A DNA stretch of 64,000 bases from Escherichia coli. Lineage in GTDB: Bacteria; Pseudomonadota; Gammaproteobacteria; Enterobacterales; Enterobacteriaceae. Shown piece by piece: positions 24,714 to 37,778 of the stretch. The notes beneath the pieces were generated by a model. It did no database searches. It had not been told where the DNA came from and saw only the letters and a program-made list of their open reading frames with translations. Where the stretch lies: NCBI RefSeq assembly GCF_024502345.1, contig NZ_JALDNN010000001.1. One strand, 5' to 3'. Made by a program: the position numbers and the translations under genes. Numbering within the stretch: position 1 is the first letter of the stretch; each line of letters begins with the position of its first letter.

Positions 24714-24916
24714 GTTCTATTCCTTATGCGGGGTCAGATACTTAGTTTGCCCAGCTTGCAAAAAGGCATCGCTGCAATTGGTGCTGAAACGATAAAGTAA
24801 TTGTGTGACCCAGATCGATATTTACAGGGAGCCTGCCTTTCCGGCGTTGTTGTTATGCCCCCAGGTATTTACAGTGTGAGAAAGAATTATTTTGACTTTA
24901 GCGGAGCAGTTGAAGA

Positions 24917-25882
24917 ATGACAAAGTATGCATTAGTCGGTGATGTGGGCGGCACCAACGCACGTCTTGCTCTGTGTGATATTGCCAGTGGTGAAATCTCG
25001 CAGGCTAAGACCTATTCAGGGCTTGATTACCCCAGCCTCGAAGCGGTCATTCGCGTTTATCTTGAAGAACATAAGGTCGAGGTGAAAGACGGCTGTATTG
25101 CCATCGCTTGCCCAATTACCGGTGACTGGGTGGCAATGACCAACCATACCTGGGCGTTCTCAATTGCCGAAATGAAAAAGAATCTCGGTTTTAGCCATCT
25201 GGAAATTATTAACGATTTTACCGCTGTATCGATGGCGATCCCGATGCTGAAAAAAGAGCATCTGATTCAGTTTGGTGGCGCAGAACCGGTAGAAGGTAAG
25301 CCTATTGCGGTTTACGGTGCCGGAACGGGGCTTGGGGTTGCGCATCTGGTCCATGTCGATAAGCGTTGGGTAAGCTTGCCGGGCGAAGGCGGTCACGTTG
25401 ATTTTGCGCCGAATAGTGAAGAAGAGGCCATTATCCTCGAAATATTGCGTGCGGAAATTGGCCATGTTTCGGCGGAACGCGTGCTTTCTGGCCCTGGGCT
25501 GGTGAATTTGTATCGCGCAATTGTGAAAGCTGACAACCGCCTGCCAGAAAATCTCAAGCCAAAAGATATTACCGAACGCGCGCTGGCTGACAGCTGCACC
25601 GATTGCCGCCGTGCGTTGTCGCTGTTTTGCGTCATTATGGGCCGTTTTGGCGGCAATCTGGCGCTCAATCTCGGGACATTTGGCGGCGTGTTTATTGCAG
25701 GCGGTATCGTGCCGCGCTTCCTTGAGTTCTTCAAAGCCTCTGGTTTCCGTGCCGCATTTGAAGATAAAGGGCGCTTTAAAGAATATGTCCATGATATTCC
25801 GGTGTATCTCATCGTCCATGACAATCCGGGTCTTCTCGGTTCCGGTGCACATTTACGCCAGACCTTAGGTCACATTCTGTAA
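24917..25882 (+). CDS. glk: glucokinase
   Basis: 321 aa; N-terminal ATP-binding motif [14 protein letters not shown]. Confidence 0.97.
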
Positions 25883-26100
25883 ATCCTTCCTGTTATATCG
25901 GGAGGTAACTCTCCCGATAATCTTTTAAATCATACAGTTAATTCAATTTTTCTTTGTGTCCCCTCACAAGGCCGACCTGCGTCACACTTCCGTACAGCGG
26001 GATTAATTCTCCAGTAAATGCATTATTTGTCTGGTAACGGCGATTTGTTTTGCACGTTCATAATTTCACTCGTCAACTATCACTGAACGAGGAATTAACG

Positions 26101-26427
26101 ATGAGTAAGAAACTGATTGCCTTATGTGCCTGCCCAATGGGCCTGGCTCACACTTTTATGGCCGCTCAGGCGCTGGAAGAAGCGGCGGTAGAAGCCGGTT
26201 ATGAAGTGAAAATTGAAACCCAGGGCGCGGACGGTATCCAGAATCGCCTGACGGCGCAGGATATCGCCGAAGCGACCATCATCATCCACTCCGTGGCAGT
26301 TACCCCGGAAGATAACGAACGTTTCGAATCACGCGACGTTTATGAAATCACTTTGCAGGACGCAATTAAAAACGCTGCGGGCATCATCAAAGAAATCGAA
26401 GAGATGATTGCCTCTGAACAACAGTAA
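26101..26427 (+). CDS. fryB: PTS fructose-like EIIB component
   Basis: 108-aa product with phosphorylatable Cys motif (LCACPMGLAHTFMAA); the ORF-track start at 26050 is upstream of the RBS-supported ATG. Confidence 0.9.
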   Translation: MSKKLIALCACPMGLAHTFMAAQALEEAAVEAGYEVKIETQGADGIQNRLTAQDIAEATIIIHSVAVTPEDNERFESRDVYEITLQDAIKNAAGIIKEIEEMIASEQQ

Positions 26428-26448
26428 TATTCGACAGGGATAATTGTT

Positions 26449-27696
26449 ATGGCCATTAAAAAACGCAGTGCAACCGTTGTGCCTGGCGCATCCGGTGCGG
26501 CAGCGGCAGTTAAGAATCCGCAGGCCTCTAAAAGCAGCTTCTGGGGTGAACTCCCGCAGCATGTGATGTCAGGGATTTCACGCATGGTGCCGACCTTAAT
26601 TATGGGCGGTGTGATCCTCGCTTTCAGCCAGTTAATTGCTTATAGCTGGCTTAAAATTCCTGCTGAGATCGGCATCATGGATGCTCTTGATAGCGGGAAA
26701 TTCTCCGGTTTCGACCTCTCCTTACTTAAATTTGCCTGGTTGTCGCAGTCCTTCGGCGGCGTGTTGTTTGGTTTTGCCATTCCGATGTTTGCTGCTTTTG
26801 TGGCGAACTCTATCGGTGGCAAACTGGCGTTTCCGGCTGGTTTTATCGGCGGCTTGATGTCTACCCAGCCGACGCAACTGCTGAACTTCGATCCCAGCAC
26901 TATGCAATGGGCGACCTCTTCGCCGGTGCCGTCCACCTTCATTGGTGCGCTGATTATATCTATCGTTGCTGGTTACCTTGTGAAATGGATGAACCAGAAA
27001 ATCCAGTTACCAGATTTCCTGTTAGCGTTCAAAACCACATTTTTGCTACCGATTCTTTCCGCCATTTTTGTCATGCTGGCGATGTACTACGTCATCACCC
27101 CATTTGGTGGCTGGATCAACGGCGGTATCCGTACCGTGCTGACTGCCGCAGGTGAGAAGGGCGCGCTGATGTACGCAATGGGGATCGCCGCGGCGACAGC
27201 AATCGACCTTGGTGGCCCGATCAACAAAGCCGCAGGTTTTGTTGCCTTCAGCTTTACCACTGACCACGTATTACCGGTCACCGCACGTTCTATCGCTATC
27301 GTTATTCCGCCGATTGGTCTGGGTCTGGCGACCATTATTGACCGTCGTTTAACCGGCAAACGCCTGTTCAACGCACAACTTTATCCGCAGGGTAAGACCG
27401 CGATGTTCCTTGCCTTTATGGGGATTAGTGAGGGTGCAATTCCGTTTGCACTGGAAAGCCCCATCACCGCCATTCCGTCGTATATGGTCGGCGCGATTGT
27501 CGGCTCAACCGCAGCTGTCTGGCTGGGCGCAGTGCAATGGTTCCCGGAGTCCGCTATCTGGGCATGGCCACTGGTCACTAACCTCGGCGTCTACATGGCG
27601 GGGATCGCGCTGGGGGCAGTCATTACTGCGCTGATGGTGGTGTTCCTGCGTCTGATGATGTTCCGTAAAGGCAAATTGTTAATCGATAGCCTGTAA
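26449..27696 (+). CDS. fryC: PTS fructose-like EIIC permease
   Basis: 415-aa polytopic membrane protein directly following fryB. Confidence 0.9.
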
Positions 27697-27710
27697 GAAG
27701 GAAAATCCAG

Positions 27711-28796
27711 ATGACATTACTCGCTTCGCTGCGTGACTGGCTTAAGGCGCAACAACTGGATGCGGTGCTTCTCTCCTCACGGCAGAACAAACAGCCGCAT
27801 CTGGGGATCTCCACCGGATCAGGCTATGTGCTGATTAGCCGTGAAAGTGCGCACATTCTGGTGGACTCGCGCTATTACGCGGATGTAGAAGCCCGCACGC
27901 AAGGTTACCAGCTGCATTTGCTTGACGCGACGCACACGCTTACAACCATCGCCAGGCAAATCATTGCCGATGAGCAGTTGCAAACGCTCGGTTTTGAAGG
28001 CCAGCAGGTGAGTTGGGAAACCGCGCACCGCTGGCAGTCTGAACTCAATGCGAAACTGGTTAGCGCCACGCCGGATGTGCTGCGGCAAATCAAAACGCCA
28101 GAGGAGGTGGAGAAAATCCGCCTTGCCTGTGGGATTGCCGATCGCGGTGCAGAGCATATTCGCCGCTTTATTCAGGCGGGGATGAGCGAGCGCGAGATAG
28201 CCGCTGAACTGGAGTGGTTTATGCGCCAGCAGGGCGCAGAAAAAGCCTCTTTTGACACCATTGTTGCCAGTGGCTGGCGTGGGGCGCTGCCGCACGGCAA
28301 AGCCAGCGACAAGATTGTTGCAGCGGGCGAGTTTGTCACTCTCGATTTCGGTGCGCTCTATCAGGGCTACTGCTCTGATATGACGCGCACCTTGCTGGTG
28401 AATGGCGAAGGGGTGAGCGCCGAATCTCATCCGCTGTTTAACGTCTATCAGATTGTTTTGCAGGCACAGCTCGCAGCAATCTCTGCAATTCGCCCCGGCG
28501 TGCGCTGCCAGCAGGTTGACGAAGCCGCGCGTCGGGTGATTACCGAGGCAGGTTTTAGCCACTATTTCAGTCATAACACCGGTCATGCTATCGGCATTGA
28601 AGTTCATGAAGATCCGCGTTTTTCACCGCGGGACACCACGACGCTACAGCCAGGCATGTTACTGACCGTGGAGCCGGGGATTTATTTGCCAGGGCAAGGG
28701 GGCGTGCGCATCGAAGATGTTGTGCTGGTTACCCCGCAAGGCGCAGAAGTGCTCTACGCCATGCCGAAAACAGTGTTGCTCACGGGAGAGGCATAA
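27711..28796 (+). CDS. ypdF: Xaa-Pro aminopeptidase (M24 family)
   Basis: 361 aa; metal-ligand histidine motif [13 protein letters not shown]. Confidence 0.9.
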
Positions 28797-29833
28797 TGGA
28801 TTTATCGCTATTAAAAGCGTTGAGCGAGGCAGATGCGATCGCCTCCTCGGAACAGGAAGTGCGGCAGATCCTGCTGGAAGAAGCGGATCGCCTGCAAAAA
28901 GAAGTGCGATTTGATGGTCTGGGATCGGTGCTGATCCGCCTGAATGAATCGACAGGTCCGAAGGTGATGATCTGTGCGCATATGGACGAAGTGGGATTTA
29001 TGGTGCGCAGCATCTCCCGCGAAGGGGCGATTGATGTGCTGCCGGTTGGCAATGTACGCATGGCTGCCCGCCAGCTGCAGCCGGTGCGCATCACCACCCG
29101 TGAAGAGTGCAAAATTCCAGGCCTGCTTGACGGCGACCGGCAGGGGAATGATGTCAGCGCCATGCGCGTGGATATTGGCGCGCGCTCGTATGACGAAGTG
29201 ATGCAGGCGGGAATTCGTCCAGGCGATCGCGTCACGTTCGATACCACTTTTCAGGTTCTCCCCCACCAGCGGGTGATGGGGAAAGCCTTTGATGACCGCC
29301 TCGGTTGCTATCTGCTGGTGACGTTACTGCGCGAACTACACAGCGCTGAACTGCCTGCGGAAGTGTGGCTGGTGGCCAGTTCCAGCGAAGAGGTGGGGTT
29401 ACGCGGCGGGCAAACTGCCACCCGCGCGGTGTCGCCGGACGTCGCCATTGTCCTTGATACCGCCTGCTGGGCGAAAAACTTTGATTATGGCGCGGCTAAC
29501 CATCGCCAGATTGGTAACGGCCCGATGCTGGTGTTAAGCGACAAGTCACTGATTGCGCCGCCAAAACTCACCGCCTGGATCGAAACCGTGGCGGCAGAAA
29601 TTGGCGTGCCGTTACAGGCGGATATGTTCAGTAACGGCGGCACGGACGGTGGAGCGGTGCACTTAACCGGTACTGGCGTACCCACAGTGGTGATGGGGCC
29701 TGCCACCCGCCACGGACATTGCGCCGCGTCGATTGCCGATTGCCGCGACATTTTGCAGATGGAGCAACTTTTATCTGCACTTATTCAACGTCTTACGCGT
29801 GAGACGGTTGTTCAACTGACGGATTTCAGATGA
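28796..29833 (+). CDS. ypdE: M42-family aminopeptidase
   Basis: 345-aa ORF; start overlaps the ypdF stop (ATAATGG). Confidence 0.88.
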
Positions 29834-29857
29834 TCTCCTGATTAACCCGGAGCGGTT

Positions 29858-32353
29858 ATGTTAACGATTCAATTTCTCTGTCCTTTGCCTAACGGTCTAC
29901 ATGCTCGTCCGGCGTGGGAACTTAAAGAACAGTGCAGCCAGTGGCAAAGCGAAATCACTTTTATTAACCATCGCCAGAACGCAAAGGCCGATGCCAAAAG
30001 CTCGCTGGCGCTGATTGGCACCGGCACCCTATTTAATGACAGTTGCAGCCTGAACATTAGCGGCAGCGATGAAGAGCAGGCGCGGCGCGTGCTGGAAGAG
30101 TACATCCAGGTGCGCTTTATCGACAGCGACAGCGTTCAGCCTACGCAGGCAGAACTGACGGCGCATCCGCTGCCGCGTTCATTAAGCCGCCTTAACCCGG
30201 ATTTACTGTACGGCAATGTGCTGGCAAGCGGCGTCGGCGTGGGTACGCTGACCCTGTTACAAAGCGACAGCCTCGACAGTTATCGGGCAATCCCCGCCAG
30301 TGCGCAAGATTCCACCCGGCTGGAGCACAGCCTGGCAACGCTTGCCGAGCAACTGAACCAGCAATTGCGTGAGCGTGACGGCGAAAGCAAAACTATCCTC
30401 AGCGCCCATTTGTCGCTGATTCAGGATGATGAATTTGCAGGCAATATCCGTCGCCTGATGACAGAACAGCATCAGGGGCTGGGGGCGGCGATCATCAGCA
30501 ATATGGAGCAGGTTTGCGCCAAACTTTCTGCTTCTGCCAGCGATTATCTGCGCGAACGTGTTAGCGACATTCGCGATATTAGCGAACAGTTGCTGCATAT
30601 TACCTGGCCGGAACTGAAGCCGCGCAACAATCTGGTGCTGGAAAAACCGACTATTCTGGTGGCCGAGGATTTAACCCCAAGCCAGTTTTTAAGCCTGGAT
30701 TTAAAAAATCTTGCGGGCATGATTCTGGAGAAAACCGGGCGCACCTCGCATACCCTGATTCTGGCCCGCGCCTCGGCGATCCCGGTACTGAGCGGCCTGC
30801 CGCTGGATGCGATTGCCCGTTATGCCGGGCAACCTGCAGTGCTTGACGCCCAGTGCGGCGTGCTGGCGATTAACCCGAATGACGCGGTGAGCGGTTATTA
30901 TCAGGTCGCGCAGACGCTGGCGGATAAACGCCAAAAACAACAGGCGCAGGCTGCCGCGCAGCTGGCTTATTCCCGTGATAACAAGCGTATTGATATCGCG
31001 GCGAATATTGGCACCGCTCTGGAAGCGCCTGGCGCGTTTGCAAACGGCGCGGAAGGCGTCGGGCTGTTCCGTACCGAAATGCTCTATATGGATCGCGACA
31101 GCGCGCCGGACGAGCAGGAGCAATTTGAAGCCTACCAGCAGGTGCTACTGGCAGCGGGCGACAAGCCGATTATCTTCCGCACAATGGACATCGGAGGCGA
31201 TAAAAGCATTCCTTATCTGAATATTCCCCAGGAAGAGAACCCGTTCCTTGGCTATCGCGCGGTACGTATTTACCCGGAATTTGCTGGTCTGTTCCGCACT
31301 CAACTGCGGGCCATTTTGCGCGCCGCCAGTTTCGGCAACGCCCAGTTGATGATCCCGATGGTTCACAGCCTCGATCAGATCTTATGGGTGAAGGGCGAGA
31401 TCCAAAAAGCGATCGTTGAGCTTAAGCGCGATGGCCTGCGTCATGCAGAGACGATTACGCTGGGTATCATGGTGGAAGTGCCGTCGGTGTGCTACATCAT
31501 CGACCACTTCTGCGATGAGGTCGATTTCTTCAGTATCGGCTCCAACGATATGACCCAGTATCTGTATGCGGTAGATCGTAATAACCCGCGCGTATCGCCG
31601 CTGTATAACCCGATTACGCCATCGTTCCTGCGCATGTTGCAGCAGATAGTTACCACTGCGCATCAGCGAGGCAAATGGGTAGGCATTTGCGGTGAACTGG
31701 GCGGTGAAAGCCGTTATCTGCCGCTACTGCTTGGGCTGGGCCTGGATGAGCTGAGTATGAGTAGCCCGCGCATTCCGGCGGTGAAAAGCCAGCTTCGTCA
31801 ACTGGATAGCGAGGCGTGTCGGGAACTGGCACGTCAGGCGTGTGAATGTCGCAGCGCGCAGGAAATTGAAGCGTTACTCACCGCCTTTACGCCGGAAGAA
31901 GACGTTCGCCCGCTGCTGGCGCTGGAGAATATCTTCGTTGATCAGGCCTTTAGCAATAAAGAGCAGGCGATCCAGTTCCTGTGCGGTAACCTCGGCGTTA
32001 ACGGGCGCACTGAACATCCGTTCGAGCTGGAAGAGGATGTCTGGCAGCGGGCAGAGATTGTCACCACTGGCGTTGGTTTTGGCGTGGCGATCCCGCACAC
32101 CAAATCTCAGTGGATCCGTCATTCCAGTATCAGCATTGCCCGGCTGGCGAAACCGGTTGACTGGCAGTCAGAAATGGGCGAAGTCGAACTGGTGATCATG
32201 CTGACGCTGGGTGCTAACGAAGGGATGAATCATGTGAAAGTCTTCTCGCAGCTGGCGCGTAAACTGGTGAATAAAAACTTCCGCCAGTCGTTGTTTGCCG
32301 CGCAAGATGCACAAAGTATCCTGACGCTGCTGGAAACAGAATTAACCTTCTGA
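29858..32353 (+). CDS. fryA: multiphosphoryl-transfer PTS protein (HPr-like, enzyme I-like and EIIA-like domains fused)
   Basis: 831 aa; N-terminal HPr-like domain (LHARPAWEL), central enzyme I homology (…GRTSHTLILARA…, …RTMDIGGDK…), C-terminal EIIA-Fru-like domain. Confidence 0.93.
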   Translation: MLTIQFLCPLPNGLHARPAWELKEQCSQWQSEITFINHRQNAKADAKSSLALIGTGTLFNDSCSLNISGSDEEQARRVLEEYIQVRFIDSDSVQPTQAELTAHPLPRSLSRLNPDLLYGNVLASGVGVGTLTLLQSDSLDSYRAIPASAQDSTRLEHSLATLAEQLNQQLRERDGESKTILSAHLSLIQDDEFAGNIRRLMTEQHQGLGAAIISNMEQVCAKLSASASDYLRERVSDIRDISEQLLHITWPELKPRNNLVLEKPTILVAEDLTPSQFLSLDLKNLAGMILEKTGRTSHTLILARASAIPVLSGLPLDAIARYAGQPAVLDAQCGVLAINPNDAVSGYYQVAQTLADKRQKQQAQAAAQLAYSRDNKRIDIAANIGTALEAPGAFANGAEGVGLFRTEMLYMDRDSAPDEQEQFEAYQQVLLAAGDKPIIFRTMDIGGDKSIPYLNIPQEENPFLGYRAVRIYPEFAGLFRTQLRAILRAASFGNAQLMIPMVHSLDQILWVKGEIQKAIVELKRDGLRHAETITLGIMVEVPSVCYIIDHFCDEVDFFSIGSNDMTQYLYAVDRNNPRVSPLYNPITPSFLRMLQQIVTTAHQRGKWVGICGELGGESRYLPLLLGLGLDELSMSSPRIPAVKSQLRQLDSEACRELARQACECRSAQEIEALLTAFTPEEDVRPLLALENIFVDQAFSNKEQAIQFLCGNLGVNGRTEHPFELEEDVWQRAEIVTTGVGFGVAIPHTKSQWIRHSSISIARLAKPVDWQSEMGEVELVIMLTLGANEGMNHVKVFSQLARKLVNKNFRQSLFAAQDAQSILTLLETELTF

Positions 32354-32355
32354 CG

Positions 32356-33213
32356 TTAGCCCTGAAAACGGGCGCTGTACTCTCCCGGCGTCAGACCAAA
32401 CTGACGCCGGAAAACGCGACAAAAATAGTCGCTATCCGGAAAACCGCAACGCTGTGCCACTTCATGAATTGACAGATGATATTTCTGCAAAATCATCCTC
32501 GCCTTCGCCATTCGCACCCAACGCACATACTCGATAAAACGCATCGTTCCATGCTGAGCAAACAGTTTTGACAGATGATTGGGCGTGATATTAAAAAACT
32601 GCGCCACGCTCTCGCGGGTGAGCGGCTGGGCATAATTATCCTGAACCCAGTTACAAATGCTGTGATAGAGAAAATCGCCGCGCGGCTGCGAATTGCCCGG
32701 CGGCATATTCACCACGTTACGGCAAAGATGCAGCAAACTTAACACCAGCGGCTGAATGATATTTTGCTCCAGCGGCGAACGGCTAAGATGGGTGAGGGCG
32801 GTAAGCATCGCTTCACCTTCACCGCGTTGCAGGCTGGGAAGCTGGATCTGGCGAGCAGGATGCAACAACGACGTGGTGCGGCTATCGTAAAACGATAACC
32901 CAAGCCAGGTCGGAGCGAACACCAGGCTTAACAGCATCACCGGTTTGTTGTTGACCGGTAAATTAGCCGCGCGCGCCGGAATAAACAGCATTTCTCCTTC
33001 CACCAAACGTTGCTGCTTTGCTTCCAGCAGATTGCCGTATTCGCCGCGCAGCACGATATCCAGACGGGGAAAATCAATACATAAACTGCCCACCGGCAAC
33101 GAGGCAGGCTGGCTGGCAAACCAGACGCGCCCCAGTAGTTGCGGGTTAAGCACCAGGCCGCTGAACAGATCGGCGAAAAATTGTTGATCGGCGGGCAAGC
33201 CTGGTGCTTTCAT
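32356..33213 (-). CDS. ypdC: AraC-family transcriptional regulator YpdC
   Basis: 285 aa with C-terminal AraC-type HTH. Confidence 0.88.
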   Translation of the reverse strand: MKAPGLPADQQFFADLFSGLVLNPQLLGRVWFASQPASLPVGSLCIDFPRLDIVLRGEYGNLLEAKQQRLVEGEMLFIPARAANLPVNNKPVMLLSLVFAPTWLGLSFYDSRTTSLLHPARQIQLPSLQRGEGEAMLTALTHLSRSPLEQNIIQPLVLSLLHLCRNVVNMPPGNSQPRGDFLYHSICNWVQDNYAQPLTRESVAQFFNITPNHLSKLFAQHGTMRFIEYVRWVRMAKARMILQKYHLSIHEVAQRCGFPDSDYFCRVFRRQFGLTPGEYSARFQG

Positions 33214-33225
33214 GAAAGTTCCCGA

Positions 33226-33978
33226 TTAAAGATGCATTAACTGGCGGAATTCTTTAACTTTGCTGCGGCTGACCGGCACTTCAAAATCCAGATCTTTCAG
33301 CCGCAGAATATAGGTGTTATTAAACCACGGTTCGATTTCGCGGATTTTGTTCAGATTGACACAAAATGAGCGATGGCAGCGGAAAAAATGCGACGGCGGC
33401 AGTTTGCTGCAAAATTCGGTAATGTTCATCGGCATTACGTAGGATTCACGCCGCGTATAGACAAAGGTCATTTTCTCGTGCGCTTCGGCGTAATAGATAT
33501 CGTTAATTGGCGTGACGATGATTCGCTCATCTTTCACCAGATTAATGGTGTCATTCTCACGCGTTACCGTCGCGGCAGGCGTGCTGCTGGTCTGCTGTTG
33601 TTGCCAGGCCGCTTCCAGTTTTTGCAGCATCCCGGTAATGCGTGACTCCTGATACGGTTTGAGAATGTATTCAAACGCCTCCAGTTCAAACGCTTCTACC
33701 GCATGTTCTTTCCACGCGGTGATGAACACAATAAACGGTTTATGGGCGAACTGGCTGATGTTTTGCGCCAGCAACACACCATCCAGCGACGGAATATTGA
33801 TATCCAGAAAAATGGCGTCGACGCGGTTATGCTGCAAAAACTTCAACACGTCCAGACCGTCGTCAAAGGTGCCGACAATCTCCATCTGGCTGTGCTCTTT
33901 AATTAGCCAGCTCAGTTCCTGTTGTGCCAGGAATTCGTCTTCAACAATGATGACTTTCACAATATCACTCCGGCTCAA
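33226..33978 (-). CDS. ypdB: LytTR-family response regulator YpdB
   Basis: Receiver domain (…VIIVEDEF…) plus C-terminal LytTR DNA-binding domain; the true start may be an internal GTG about 6 codons into the listed ORF. Confidence 0.9.
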
Positions 33979-35672
33979 AGCAATAACGTAGCCTGTGAGG
34001 CGACTGGGGTGCGTTGGTTAGGAATGTAAAACGCAATTTCCGTTCCTGGTTCCAGGCGGCGGATATGCAGCCCCTCGCCATACAATAACTTCACGCGATG
34101 ATGGACATTCAGCAGGCCAATTTTATTGCCCGGCATTTCATTCGCTTCGACCCGCTCAATCACCTTTGGATCGATGCCGTGCCCGGTATCCCGCACCGCA
34201 ATGCGTACCCGATTGCCGCACTCTGCAACGCTGATGGTGACAACGCCTTTACCTTTGCAAGGCTGGATACCGTGGACAATGGCATTCTCCACCAACGGCT
34301 GGATCAGCAGGCTGGGAATGCAGCAATTCACCTCTTCATCAATATCATAGATAACCGTCAGCTTGTCGCCAAAGCGGGCCTGCTCAATGGCAATATAGTC
34401 TTTAATTTGATACAGCTCTTTTTTGATATCGATTTGCTCATCGTCTTTTAATTCAATGTTATAGCGCAGATAACGCGACAGATTAAAGATTAGCTGGCGA
34501 GCAGTATCCGGATTCAGACGGATTGACGATGAAATAGCGTTCAAAGCGTTAAACAGGAAATGGGGATTAATTTTGCTTTGCAGGGCGCGAAGCTCTGCCT
34601 TATTTGCCATTTCACGTAGCTGCTCGGCGCGTGAAACCTCCAGTTGCGTGGAGATGATTTGCGACAGACCAACCGCCATTTCCTGTAATGACGAGGTTAT
34701 CTGATGCGCGTGGCAGTAGTAAATTTTCAGCGTTCCGGTCACAACGCCTTTCTCCCACAATGGGATCACCAGCATGGAATGAATCTCTGGTGTGCGGTGG
34801 GCTTCATCATTGTTTTTAATGATGATTTTTCCGTAATTCATCGCCTGACGGGTAGTCGGGCTAATGAAGTCATCGCCGTTCTGATAGTTATGTTCACCCA
34901 CGCCAACATAGGCCAGCACATGATCGGTATTAGTAATCGCCACCGCATCGGCGTGAATGTCATCGCGAATAATTTCACAAACTTTGCGTAATGACTCGCT
35001 ATTGACATGGCGAAACAGAGGTAGCGTTTTGTTGGCGATATCCAGCGCCAGCTTGGCCTGCCGCGCGGCGCTGGCCTCTTTTTCGCCCTCAACGCTTTGC
35101 ACCAGAAGCACAATAAAGCCGATACAGACGCTGCCGAGGATCATTGGAATCCCGATTTTAGAGACGATATCGATCCCCAACGCGGTAGTTGGTGCCCAGA
35201 CAATCACCAGAATCATGGTCAACGTTTCACACAACATGCCGCCGAGAATACCGACGCGCCAGCGCTGTGCTTTGGGGATTTTCAGGTTGATCCAGCCCGA
35301 TATACAACCAGCCAGAATGCTGGTGATAAAGCAGGGGATCGCCGTCACGCCGCCGATATCAATTAAATAACGATGAATACCCGCAATCACGCCGGTAATG
35401 ATGCCCACCCACGGGCCAAACAGAATCCCGCCGGACATCACCGCGATAATACGTACGTTCACCAGCGAGCCTTCTACGGGAACGCCGGACCAGGTGCTGA
35501 AGAGGGCGAACAGCGAGAAAATGGCGGTAACGGCGAGCAACTCTTTCGGTGAGTGTGCCGACTTGTGCAACAGTTCGCGAAACAGGCGGATACGGATGAG
35601 AAAGAACAGGCAGATAAGCATTAACGCTGCCCGATCGAAGACCGCCAGCAGCATGTTGAATATTTCGTGCAC
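33975..35672 (-). CDS. ypdA: LytS-type sensor histidine kinase YpdA
   Basis: 565 aa; membrane N-terminus, GAF-like middle region, His-kinase core; stop overlaps ypdB start. Confidence 0.92.
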
Positions 35673-36048
35673 GGGTGACTCTGAATAAGGATTAAACCTC
35701 TATGATAGGTAACCTGAAGGCTGATGACCAGCAGGCCGTTTTTGAGGAAAAACCACAATTTTAAAAGGGGATTGATAGATAAATGGTGTATTAGCAATGC
35801 ATCTCTTGATAATGCACTTCTGGTTAGTAAATTTATTGAAATTATTATGTTAATAAAATGAGTGGTAATTTTCTTGTTAGCGCAGATAAATTTCCTGTTT
35901 TTAAAGCAGAGTTCCTCATTTAACGTCATTAATAAAAATGTTCTAAAACGCTGGACAGACAGAAATTAATCAGGCTATTTTCAAAACAGCCACCATCGTG
36001 GCAGCGTCGCTCGGACGGTCCGGGCGCTAACGTTAATCTGAGGAAATT

Positions 36049-37287
36049 ATGGCTGACACTCGCCCTGAACGTCGCTTTACGCGCATTGATCGTCTCCCGC
36101 CCTATGTTTTTAACATTACCGCTGAACTGAAAATGGCTGCGCGTCGGCGCGGCGAAGATATTATCGATTTCAGTATGGGTAACCCGGACGGTGCGACTCC
36201 GCCGCATATCGTCGAAAAATTATGTACTGTGGCCCAGCGCCCGGACACGCATGGTTACTCCACTTCACGCGGTATTCCGCGGCTACGTCGCGCCATTTCC
36301 CGCTGGTATCAGGATCGCTACGACGTTGAAATCGACCCGGAATCAGAAGCCATCGTCACTATTGGTTCGAAAGAGGGCCTGGCGCATCTGATGCTGGCGA
36401 CACTGGATCACGGTGACACAGTGCTGGTGCCGAATCCAAGTTACCCCATTCATATTTACGGCGCGGTGATTGCCGGGGCTCAGGTACGCTCAGTGCCGCT
36501 GGTGGAAGGTGTCGATTTCTTCAACGAACTGGAGCGCGCCATTCGTGAAAGTTATCCGAAACCGAAGATGATGATCCTCGGCTTCCCGTCGAACCCAACC
36601 GCGCAATGCGTGGAACTGGAGTTCTTCGAAAAGGTTGTGGCACTGGCGAAACGCTACGATGTGCTGGTGGTCCATGACCTGGCCTATGCCGATATCGTCT
36701 ACGATGGCTGGAAAGCGCCGTCAATCATGCAGGTGCCGGGTGCACGCGATGTGGCGGTCGAGTTCTTTACGCTGTCGAAAAGCTACAACATGGCGGGCTG
36801 GCGTATCGGCTTTATGGTTGGCAACAAAACGCTGGTCAGCGCGCTGGCACGTATTAAAAGCTATCACGATTACGGCACCTTTACGCCGTTGCAGGTGGCG
36901 GCGATTGCGGCGCTGGAGGGCGATCAACAGTGCGTGCGCGACATTGCCGAACAGTACAAACGCCGCCGTGATGTATTGGTTAAAGGGCTGCATGAAGCGG
37001 GCTGGATGGTCGAAATGCCGAAGGCTTCGATGTATGTCTGGGCGAAAATACCGGAACCGTATGCTGCCATGGGCTCGCTGGAATTTGCCAAGAAATTGCT
37101 TAACGAAGCGAAGGTCTGTGTCTCTCCGGGGATTGGCTTTGGCGACTATGGTGATACGCATGTGCGCTTTGCACTGATTGAAAACCGCGACCGTATTCGT
37201 CAGGCGATTCGTGGGATTAAAGCGATGTTCCGTGCCGACGGTTTACTACCCGCCAGCAGCAAACATATTCACGAAAACGCGGAATAA
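36049..37287 (+). CDS. alaC: glutamate-pyruvate aminotransferase AlaC
   Basis: 412 aa, class I aminotransferase with PLP-lysine context ([16 protein letters not shown]). Confidence 0.95.
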
Positions 37288-37351
37288 ACACCGACCTCAG
37301 AAATGCAAACAGGAGCCTGATGGCTCCTGTTTTTCATTGCACAGTTTGCTT

Positions 37352-37423
37352 TTAGATCATCAGGGCAAAAGTACCGGCCCAAACGATGACCATAAAAGAA
37401 ATGCCCATAAAGAAATATTTCAC
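37352..37423 (-). CDS. ypdK: small membrane protein YpdK (23 aa)
   Basis: Minus-strand ORF encoding (M/V)KYFFMGISFMVIVWAGTFALMI; here it begins with GTG. Below the ORF-track size cutoff. Confidence 0.6.
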   Translation of the reverse strand: MKYFFMGISFMVIVWAGTFALMI

Positions 37424-37778
37424 TTTACATCTCTCCGCGTAATTGCTGTTACGCCTGAATGACTTCATTACACCTGATACAGTGAGTTGACACCGGGCAA
37501 AACGACCTTAAAAGTCCTGTATTTTACCGTGGGCATCACCCCAGAATTCTGAGCTAAACTGCTCGAGACGGCGCTAATGTACGCCTAAAACTGAAACGAG
37601 ACAAGAGGCATTTTCTTATTTACTTTTAGTAACTTACAGGTGTCTCATATCGGCGACAGTTTAATTTCTGACGGTAATAATTAGATGTTCAGCGAAGGAA
37701 AAAACCTTAAGAAAAAAGCCATAAAAACCATGAGGTTATTATGGCTTATGTGAGGAGGTAAAGAGTCAGAGCAGTTTG

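Follow-up and report, generated by a model that had tools for sequence, protein, structure and literature searches.

A conserved phosphotransferase-aminopeptidase module at the Escherichia coli fry locus, its likely regulator and a possible sugar-peptide substrate

The fry operon of Escherichia coli joins genes of a phosphotransferase system (PTS) to two aminopeptidase genes and lies, with neighbouring regulatory genes, at 26101-35672 of the window analysed here, a stretch of 64,000 nucleotides from contig NZ_JALDNN010000001.1 (NCBI RefSeq assembly GCF_024502345.1). Comparison with related loci indicates that the unit comprises six genes, fryB-fryC-ypdF-ypdE-fryA and the convergent ypdC, and that it behaves as a horizontally mobile catabolic module. 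The PTS would import a hexose-amino-acid or hexose-peptide conjugate, which the aminopeptidases YpdE and YpdF would trim, under the control of YpdC; we put the probability of this reading at roughly 0.45. Judged from the partner genes of related operons, the sugar part of the substrate is probably alpha-linked mannose. Much more tentatively, and on balance doubtfully, the fry module could be the enterobacterial form of a widespread gut-bacterial salvage of O-mannosylated Ser/Thr glycopeptides.

One genome per species was scanned, giving 80 loci (36 enterobacterial species and 44 others) that were compared with the E. coli proteins by tblastn; the enterobacterial adjacency counts use only loci whose contig is long enough. 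The FryC permease is adjoined by YpdF in 34/34 enterobacterial species and accompanied by YpdE in 33/33 and FryA in 32/32. YpdC is present in 29 of 32, where its gene stands beside fryA with or without the two-component genes ypdAB. The chromosomal neighbour glk is found with FryC in 17 of the 36 species. In Pseudenterobacter and the JGI isolates, fryB-fryC-M24-M42-fryA always occurs with the convergent AraC-family gene, lacks ypdAB and sits in unrelated neighbourhoods; in Salmonella arizonae and diarizonae the order is glk-fry-ypdC-alaC and ypdAB is missing. The aminotransferase gene alaC was considered as a further member of the system and rejected: its adjacency tracks the glk-side chromosomal context and not the module, and the 'aminotransferase' gene that closes the clostridial operons encodes a PatB-family lyase only 20-24% identical to AlaC.

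Eight intact genes fill 26101-35672 exactly, as seen from the open reading frame (ORF) listing and its translation. On the plus strand are fryB (26101-26427; 108 amino acids (aa)), encoding a PTS enzyme IIB of the fructose (Fru) family; fryC (26449-27696; 415 aa), the PTS enzyme IIC permease; ypdF (27711-28796; 361 aa), an M24B Xaa-Pro/Met aminopeptidase; ypdE (28796-29833; 345 aa), an M42 aminopeptidase; and fryA (29858-32353; 831 aa), a fused HPr-EI-EIIA(Fru) phosphoryl-transfer protein (EI, enzyme I; EIIA or IIA, enzyme IIA). The four junctions measure 21, 14, -1 (a TAATG overlap) and 24 bp, respectively. The minus strand carries ypdC (32356-33213; 285 aa), for an AraC-family regulator, ypdB (33226-33960; 244 aa), for a LytTR response regulator, and ypdA (33975-35672; 565 aa), for a LytS-type histidine kinase, spaced by 12 bp (ypdC-ypdB) and 14 bp (ypdB-ypdA). 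fryA and ypdC are convergent, with their stop codons separated by 2 bp. Upstream, the fry unit is flanked by glk, which ends at 25882, and alaC starts at 36049, just past ypdA. An Rfam scan of 24800-37500 revealed no RNA family.

An earlier reading made from the sequence alone (the sequence-only reading) had proposed these gene identities, the domain order of FryA and the tight spacing, all of which are borne out by the ORF listing, the translations and Pfam. Of 5426 complete E. coli genomes, 5424 contain the 9.6-kb locus, at 95-100% identity and with identical gene names; the locus is core E. coli DNA and already known. Its occurrence in these genomes and the repetition of its gene order in 36 enterobacterial species place the arrangement far beyond chance. 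The sequence-only reading had also described the locus as a puzzle of E. coli generally and not a novelty of this strain, and had held that its substrate is not established. Both views agree with what we found: the locus belongs to the core genome, the fry operon has no assigned function (PMC5364489), and no paper naming its substrate was found in the literature searched.

The 44 loci from outside the Enterobacteriaceae, whose neighbouring ORFs were clustered and representatives annotated, span Clostridia (including C. difficile), Erysipelotrichia, Negativicutes, Fusobacteria, Tissierellia and Rahnella, and encode FryC homologues of 50-67% and FryB homologues of 58-80% identity. Downstream of the IIC gene, 29 of the 44 carry a YpdF-type M24 peptidase and 14 a GH38 alpha-mannosidase, while one carries PatB only; M24 and GH38 occur together in 0/44 and every locus has one of these partner sets (none at all, 0/44). 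The 29 loci with M24 also encode M42 in 16 cases and a PepV/Sapep-like M20 dipeptidase in 12. A pyridoxal-phosphate (PLP) lyase of the PatB/MalY family is encoded in 23 of the 44 (TIGR04350, 340-357 bits; cutoff 340). On the model for mannosylglycerate hydrolase the GH38 partner reaches 616 bits; GH38 is absent from the window and from all 36 enterobacterial fry loci. The peptidases and PatB on the one hand and GH38 on the other thus appear to be alternative ways to split the phosphorylated sugar from its aglycone after uptake.

The clostridial peptidases are specifically YpdF- and YpdE-like on the strength of their model scores: M42 reaches 393 bits on the YpdE model and 176 on the other E. 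coli M42 model, and for M24 the scores are 352 and 333 bits with the YpdF model and 269 and 256 with PepQ. The PTS-YpdF(-YpdE) order extends from the Enterobacteriaceae to Clostridia, Negativicutes and Erysipelotrichia and persists where protein identities are as low as approximately 40%, which points to an ancient PTS-peptidase link conserved across phyla and not to an E. coli oddity. That the peptidases are instead housekeeping passengers in a sugar PTS operon, sharing no substrate with it, seems improbable in the light of this order, of the mutual exclusion of M24 and GH38, and of gene junctions that overlap or measure 14 bp. In favour of the passenger explanation, Zheng and colleagues are reported to have found in 2005 that YpdE and YpdF cleave ordinary peptides in vitro. 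It also draws on the many redundant peptidases of E. coli (PMC3511314).

The partner genes bear on the chemistry of a shared substrate. The linkage of GH38 and of the mannose-6-phosphate isomerase ManA points to an alpha-mannose; the repeated occurrence of peptidases in twos and threes suggests that the aglycone is a peptide or an amino acid; and a sugar placed on the beta-position of Ser, Thr or Cys would fit PatB, a beta-eliminating PLP enzyme. In Caproiciproducens (L058) and Geosporobacter (L071), patB is immediately followed by a class I ManA gene; in C. difficile (L078) and in loci L081 and L054 such a gene adjoins the operon. A different sugar is assumed in the proposal of an Amadori-type substrate, a fructosyl-amino acid or glycated peptide that a fructose-family PTS would import and the peptidases would trim. 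FryB, FryC and the IIA domain of FryA do belong to the fructose PTS family, and both the gut and heated media such as LB commonly contain glycated peptides. Mannose and not fructose, however, is indicated by the GH38 sister operons and by ManA, and a deglycase, SIS-domain enzyme or Amadori kinase is linked in 0/80 loci, apart from an RpiR regulator in L006; we therefore regard this substrate as quite improbable.

The substrate could also be an amino sugar (for example of the Xaa-GlcN type) whose amine carries an aminoacyl or peptidyl group in amide linkage. Aminopeptidases readily cleave aminoacyl-amides, and here they would release a common sugar phosphate, so that the E. coli operon would be self-sufficient. 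Such self-sufficiency suits the E. coli and Rahnella operons, which hold only PTS parts and peptidases, without a lyase or glycosidase, and the recurrence of three aminopeptidase/dipeptidase families (M24, M42 and M20) beside this PTS is also in its favour. An amide-linked substrate leaves no role for PatB, present in 23 loci, and explains neither the Streptobacillus operon, which has PatB and no peptidase, nor the alternation of GH38 with peptidases and the ManA linkage. We consider it rather unlikely.

In Streptobacillus the order is regulator-IIA-IIB-IIC-PatB, followed by murC and murB, and no peptidase is encoded; PatB occupies the position after IIC that GH38 holds in the other fusobacterial loci. 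A tree placement of Streptobacillus inside the fusobacterial clade was not relied on, as its bootstrap support is 20-47%, and gene position was used instead. In the bootstrapped neighbour-joining tree of IIC, the enterobacterial clade is supported by 100/100, and the GH38-linked Hungatella trio groups with peptidase-type sequences of the Clostridia at 81/100; enterobacteria, the Clostridia with M24/M42/PatB and the Hungatella trio together are supported by 93/100. The Hungatella grouping implies at least one exchange of the partner set during which the permease changed little. Within this genus, L045, L046 and L048 are linked to GH38 and L057 to peptidases and PatB, with an IIC approximately 60% identical to E. 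coli FryC in both types, which suggests two related but distinct substrates.

Two further loci have unusual contents. Tandem FryBC-like sets (IIA-IIC-IIB and IIA-IIB-IIC) precede a single GH38 gene in L074 (7622-11230). L006 (313-7936; Logan SRR30067240) encodes RidA, an alanine-dehydrogenase-like protein, RpiR, EIIABC, M24, M20 and a PatB-type lyase. The L006 IIC is 54% identical to FryC and its M24 28% identical to YpdF; with so distant an M24 and an M20 as the second peptidase, L006 was rejected as an orthologous case of the peptidase link and treated as a parallel one. RidA was likewise left uncounted as support for beta-elimination, because in L049 and L056 it lies beside two housekeeping genes, proS and that for a CCA-adding enzyme; the RidA linkage might be relevant in L006 alone.

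FryB matches Pfam PTS_IIB (PF02302, 1e-19) and TIGR00829 (92 bits; cutoff 77), and its Cys11 lies within a CPMGLAHT motif; motifs of the CPxGxAHT type carry the phosphorylatable cysteine of IIB proteins. FryC matches PTS_EIIC (PF02378, 7e-14; 52 bits, cutoff 30.7) and barely passes TIGR01427 (158.1 bits; cutoff 157.55). Its family is small, with 54 representatives at E<=1e-30 in an exhaustive profile search of 1.84 billion proteins. Pfam divides FryA into five domains, in the order HPr (residues 6-84; PF00381), EI (119-650; three EI domains) and EIIA_2 (687-826; PF00359), and the EI part scores 506 bits on TIGR01417 (cutoff 342). His15, His298, Cys611 and His747 of FryA stand in canonical motifs. 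The phosphorylation residues of FryB and FryA are thus present and nothing in these sequences looks decayed. At position 31356 of the window, inside fryA, the sequence reads CCC and the most similar complete genome, NZ_CP109924, reads CC; fryA is for this reason annotated there as 'frameshifted', while the copy in the window is intact at 831 aa. Either the strains truly differ at this site or the NZ_CP109924 assembly has a homopolymer sequencing error.

With its own EI and HPr, FryA is insulated from the general PTS, and several paralogous PTS relays exist in E. coli. FryA-FryB-FryC could on these grounds be mainly a regulatory phosphorelay (similar to PTS-Ntr or DhaM), sensing a compound instead of importing it and acting on YpdC or the peptidases. 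We regard such a role as very improbable, as a full IIC permease is conserved in 80/80 loci, and the non-enterobacterial combination of a plain IIA, the general PTS and a PRD regulator is the standard layout of a catabolic PTS operon. In most of the 44 loci the IIA is a separate protein and the regulator is PRD/Mga-like, ending in a IIA domain at its C-terminus. The clostridial regulator matches the 'frv operon regulatory protein' model.

YpdF contains Peptidase_M24 (PF00557, 1e-72) and Creatinase_N (PF01321, 1e-19) domains and scores 813 bits on its equivalog model NF007310 (cutoff 393). All five metal ligands are present (D212, D223, H292, E321 and E335), and its structure has been solved (PDB 5CNX). 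YpdE is a Peptidase_M42 protein (PF05343, 5e-85) that scores 680 bits on its own equivalog model, NF007421 (cutoff 412), compared with 193 bits on the other E. coli M42 model, and has the metal-binding motifs H62/D64, D166-167, E198-199 and D221. The structure of its Shigella orthologue is known (PDB 1YLO), and a dodecameric TET assembly of YpdE is mentioned as an unpublished remark (PMC3511314).

In the reading favoured here, a sugar-amino-acid or -peptide conjugate as the substrate, FryA would take phosphate from phosphoenolpyruvate through its own EI, HPr and IIA domains and hand it to Cys11 of FryB and then to the substrate entering via FryC. The leading candidate for this substrate would be an O-mannosyl-Ser/Thr glycopeptide, the shape of which resembles mannosylglycerate, and yeast or host glycoproteins are possible sources. 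In the cytoplasm, YpdE (M42) and YpdF (M24B, Xaa-Pro) would trim the peptide part. In the relatives, the sugar phosphate would be freed by the PatB/MalY-family PLP lyase or, in the sister operons, by GH38; for an O-mannosyl substrate, the lyase would beta-eliminate mannose-6-phosphate from the remaining glyco-serine or glyco-threonine, and ManA would turn it into fructose-6-phosphate. In the enterobacteria, FryA with its private EI and HPr would have replaced the IIA protein, YpdC would have replaced the PRD regulator, and PatB would have been lost from the operon. E. coli would accordingly use the unlinked malY, metC, mngB and manA genes, and this dependence on unlinked genes, a consequence of the loss of PatB, is the weakest point of the model.

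The E. coli malY gene, unlinked to the fry operon, is present in 5422 of 5426 genomes. Among the 36 enterobacterial loci, only that of the Enterobacterales metagenome-assembled genome bin_27 (L043, 8576-17205) includes a PatB/MalY-family lyase: a malY homologue with 67.5% nucleotide identity to E. coli malY directly follows fryA, and ypdC in this locus lies upstream of fryB on the same strand.

The regulator most likely to belong to the operon is YpdC. It contains an AraC-type helix-turn-helix (HTH) region (PF12833 and PF00165), and its AlphaFold model (pLDDT 84.5) combines an N-terminal domain rich in beta-structure with two HTH motifs; Foldseek searches with the model matched the full-length AraC-family regulators CsvR, Rns and ToxT at E values of approximately 1e-8. 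YpdB has receiver and LytTR domains, and YpdA has 5TMR-LYT, GAF, His_kinase and HATPase domains. The sequence-only reading had the operon flanked by both kinds of regulator. Both do adjoin it in the window, but the LytS/LytTR pair is not part of the inherited module: ypdA adjoins it in 10 of 31 enterobacterial species and in 0 of the 44 other loci, the distribution of ypdB is identical, and the adjacency is confined to Escherichia, Citrobacter and Pseudocitrobacter. YpdA/YpdB respond to pyruvate and have yhjX as their target, and in Serratia the ypdAB pair adjoins a yhjX-like gene (PMC5552118). The candidacy of ypdAB as fry regulator was rejected on both counts, adjacency in 10/31 species only and a known target. 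Since ypdAB are adjacent in so few species while ypdC is retained in 29 of 32, ypdC is inherited with the PTS-peptidase operon in many chromosomal contexts, with ypdAB as an unrelated neighbour and bystander.

In E. coli, ypdC starts 12 bp downstream of ypdB and lacks a separate intergenic region; it is presumably transcribed together with the pyruvate-sensing ypdAB genes. Most other species have a separate region upstream of ypdC. In 20 of 31 enterobacterial species fryA and ypdC lie tail to tail with a gap of -4 to +6 bp, a spacing too short to hold terminators and suggestive of 3' ends that overlap. The fryA and ypdC transcripts therefore probably each run antisense into the other gene, and this overlap could give feedback between the operon and YpdC. 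In two Citrobacter species a 1134-bp insert separates fryA and ypdC (L014, 14042-15175; L015, 15908-17041) and holds a 351-aa ORF on the minus strand; other Citrobacter species have 280-370 bp at this place.

A candidate site of action for YpdC was identified upstream of fryB by aligning 39 distinct enterobacterial sequences from several different upstream contexts. Conservation is limited to the last approximately 130 bp before the gene, and the conserved blocks all begin downstream of a terminator-like hairpin that follows glk (25896-25919, plus strand; a 10-bp stem and then a T-rich tail), which marks the upstream boundary of the fry unit. The first block (25971-25991, plus strand), with cGA..c.TCACA.TTC at 25973-25991, has columns that are 92-100% conserved and contains a CRP-like half-site; TCACA itself is at 25982-25986, the left half is weak (..CGA), and the predicted centre is at about -92.5. 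The second block, TCCAG.AAA.GCAT.ATTT.TC.GGTAAC (26010-26038, plus strand), has a mean column conservation of 0.83-0.85. It contains a direct repeat, TCyrGTAA, on the plus strand at 26010 and 26030, 20 bp apart, that spans 26010-26037 and overlaps the -35 position; this pair occurs once in the whole 64-kb window. The predicted -10 box of the fryB promoter, CATAAT (26059-26064, plus strand), is 97-100% conserved in the 39 sequences. Counted from the predicted transcription start, near 26071, the repeats extend from about -61 to -33.

The promoter has no good -35 hexamer, as would be expected of one that depends on an activator. The block at 25971-25991 may be a CRP site and the repeat at 26010-26037 is a candidate YpdC operator. 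The araBAD and rhaBAD promoters have a similar layout and depend on an AraC-family activator together with CRP. By analogy, the fryB promoter may be controlled by YpdC and CRP, and fry transcription would proceed from near 26071, from an activator-dependent promoter served by YpdC and the CRP-like site.

The module is incomplete in several species. Escherichia sp. MOD1-EC7003 has lost part of ypdE; Citrobacter amalonaticus has a truncated fryA and no ypdC; and Kluyvera ascorbata and Citrobacter sp. MGH106 also lack ypdC. There are signs of module decay in some lineages (L012, L020, L021 and L027). A contig titled Chryseobacterium sp. 18061 (L033) carries a complete Enterobacteriaceae-type fry module, with FryC 74% and YpdC 68% identical to the E. 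coli proteins, and is probably a contaminant rather than a transfer into the Bacteroidota.

Several points weigh against a mannosyl-peptide substrate handled by a YpdC-controlled operon. Both a PatB lyase and GH38 are absent from the E. coli operon, so that locally the sugar-release step is missing; Rahnella also has no PatB. FryC (102 bits), FryB (85) and the IIA domain of FryA (72) fall far below the cutoff of 763 bits on the MngA model NF007293, and FryC scores no better there than on FruA; given this weak match, the argument for mannose depends on the sister operons of Clostridia and Fusobacteria together with ManA. ManA is found near few of the peptidase-type loci (4/29 by automated count, 5/29 from the gene maps). 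PatB/MalY enzymes are known as C-S lyases, and C-O cleavage of a glycosyl-serine by them is our own supposition. YpdE and YpdF, given their reported action on ordinary peptides, could be generalists. The IIC tree is distance-based, the neighbour genes were called by a simple ORF picker that makes some errors in high-GC loci, and a generic promoter and terminator scan of the region stayed at the shuffled background (10 vs 8.5; 12 vs 11.8), only the glk hairpin being of use from it.

Phenotypes have been reported for parts of the operon. An in-frame fryA deletion improves growth in LB and not in glucose minimal medium (PMC5364489), and a ypdE deletion in uropathogenic E. coli gives a competitive index of 0.30 in the mouse bladder (PMC8767336). 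An O-mannosyl glycopeptide substrate could fit the LB phenotype of the fryA allele, as this medium contains yeast extract. These reports and that on the L. sakei cluster described below are consistent with a real physiological role. The fry operon is a persistent function-unknown operon of the best-studied bacterium, and its phenotypes are scattered (LB growth for fryA, the bladder for ypdE). The comparison adds YpdC as the likely regulator, together with a candidate operator, removes the pyruvate-sensing two-component system, and narrows the substrate towards a mannose-type sugar joined to an amino acid or peptide; the same pathway would operate in C. difficile and many gut Clostridia. If glycopeptide salvage is indeed the function, it would be a new glycoprotein-scavenging route, and MalY-family 'C-S lyases' in PTS operons, including E. 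coli malXY, would physiologically be sugar-amino-acid lyases.

Among known systems, the locus is that of E. coli K-12, fryBC-ypdFE-fryA with ypdABC (b2383-b2387 and b2380-b2382): genes, order, spacing and products are identical, and RefSeq matches gene for gene. The operon has been listed as 'fryBC ypdF ypdE fryA' (PMC2731931). The window differs from the K-12 locus by strain-level substitutions only. Elsewhere in the species, the other two M42 paralogues, FrvX and SgcX, are also encoded in PTS operons (frvABXR and sgc), which have different PTS components and no M24 partner. In E. coli malXY a PatB/MalY-type PLP lyase is linked to a PTS permease of the Glc family, while no lyase is linked in the window. 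A cluster in L. sakei combines a PRD regulator, a PTS of the Lac family, two aminopeptidases and MalY (PMC5845896), the same theme as fry with another PTS family. In the Cys-Gly-3M3SH pathway of Staphylococcus hominis, an M20 dipeptidase acts before a PatB C-S lyase (PMC7385124), the two kinds of enzyme that are paired in the relatives of fry, but the substrate is a thioether conjugate and neither a sugar nor a PTS is involved; the C. difficile M20 scores 217 bits on the S. hominis dipeptidase model, against a cutoff of 1025.

Also related are the PTS-peptidase-PatB operons of Clostridia, Negativicutes and Erysipelotrichia, for example those of C. difficile (L078), [Clostridium] asparagiforme (L050) and Caproiciproducens (L058), with FryB 63-80% and FryC 50-67% identical. 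As in the window, IIB and IIC are followed by a YpdF-type M24 and a second metallopeptidase in the same order. They differ in having a separate IIA and a PRD/Mga-like regulator in place of FryA and YpdC, and usually add PatB, which the window operon does not have, and sometimes a PepV-like M20 or ManA. MngA/MngB, the model for importing the mannoside of a three-carbon acid and releasing mannose-6-phosphate, is related through the PTS family that MngA has in common with FryC. MngA is a IIABC fusion and FryC a stand-alone permease; FryC-like IIC proteins (50-62% identical) head operons that continue with an MngB-like GH38, and the E. coli fry operon has its peptidases at the place where GH38 would be.

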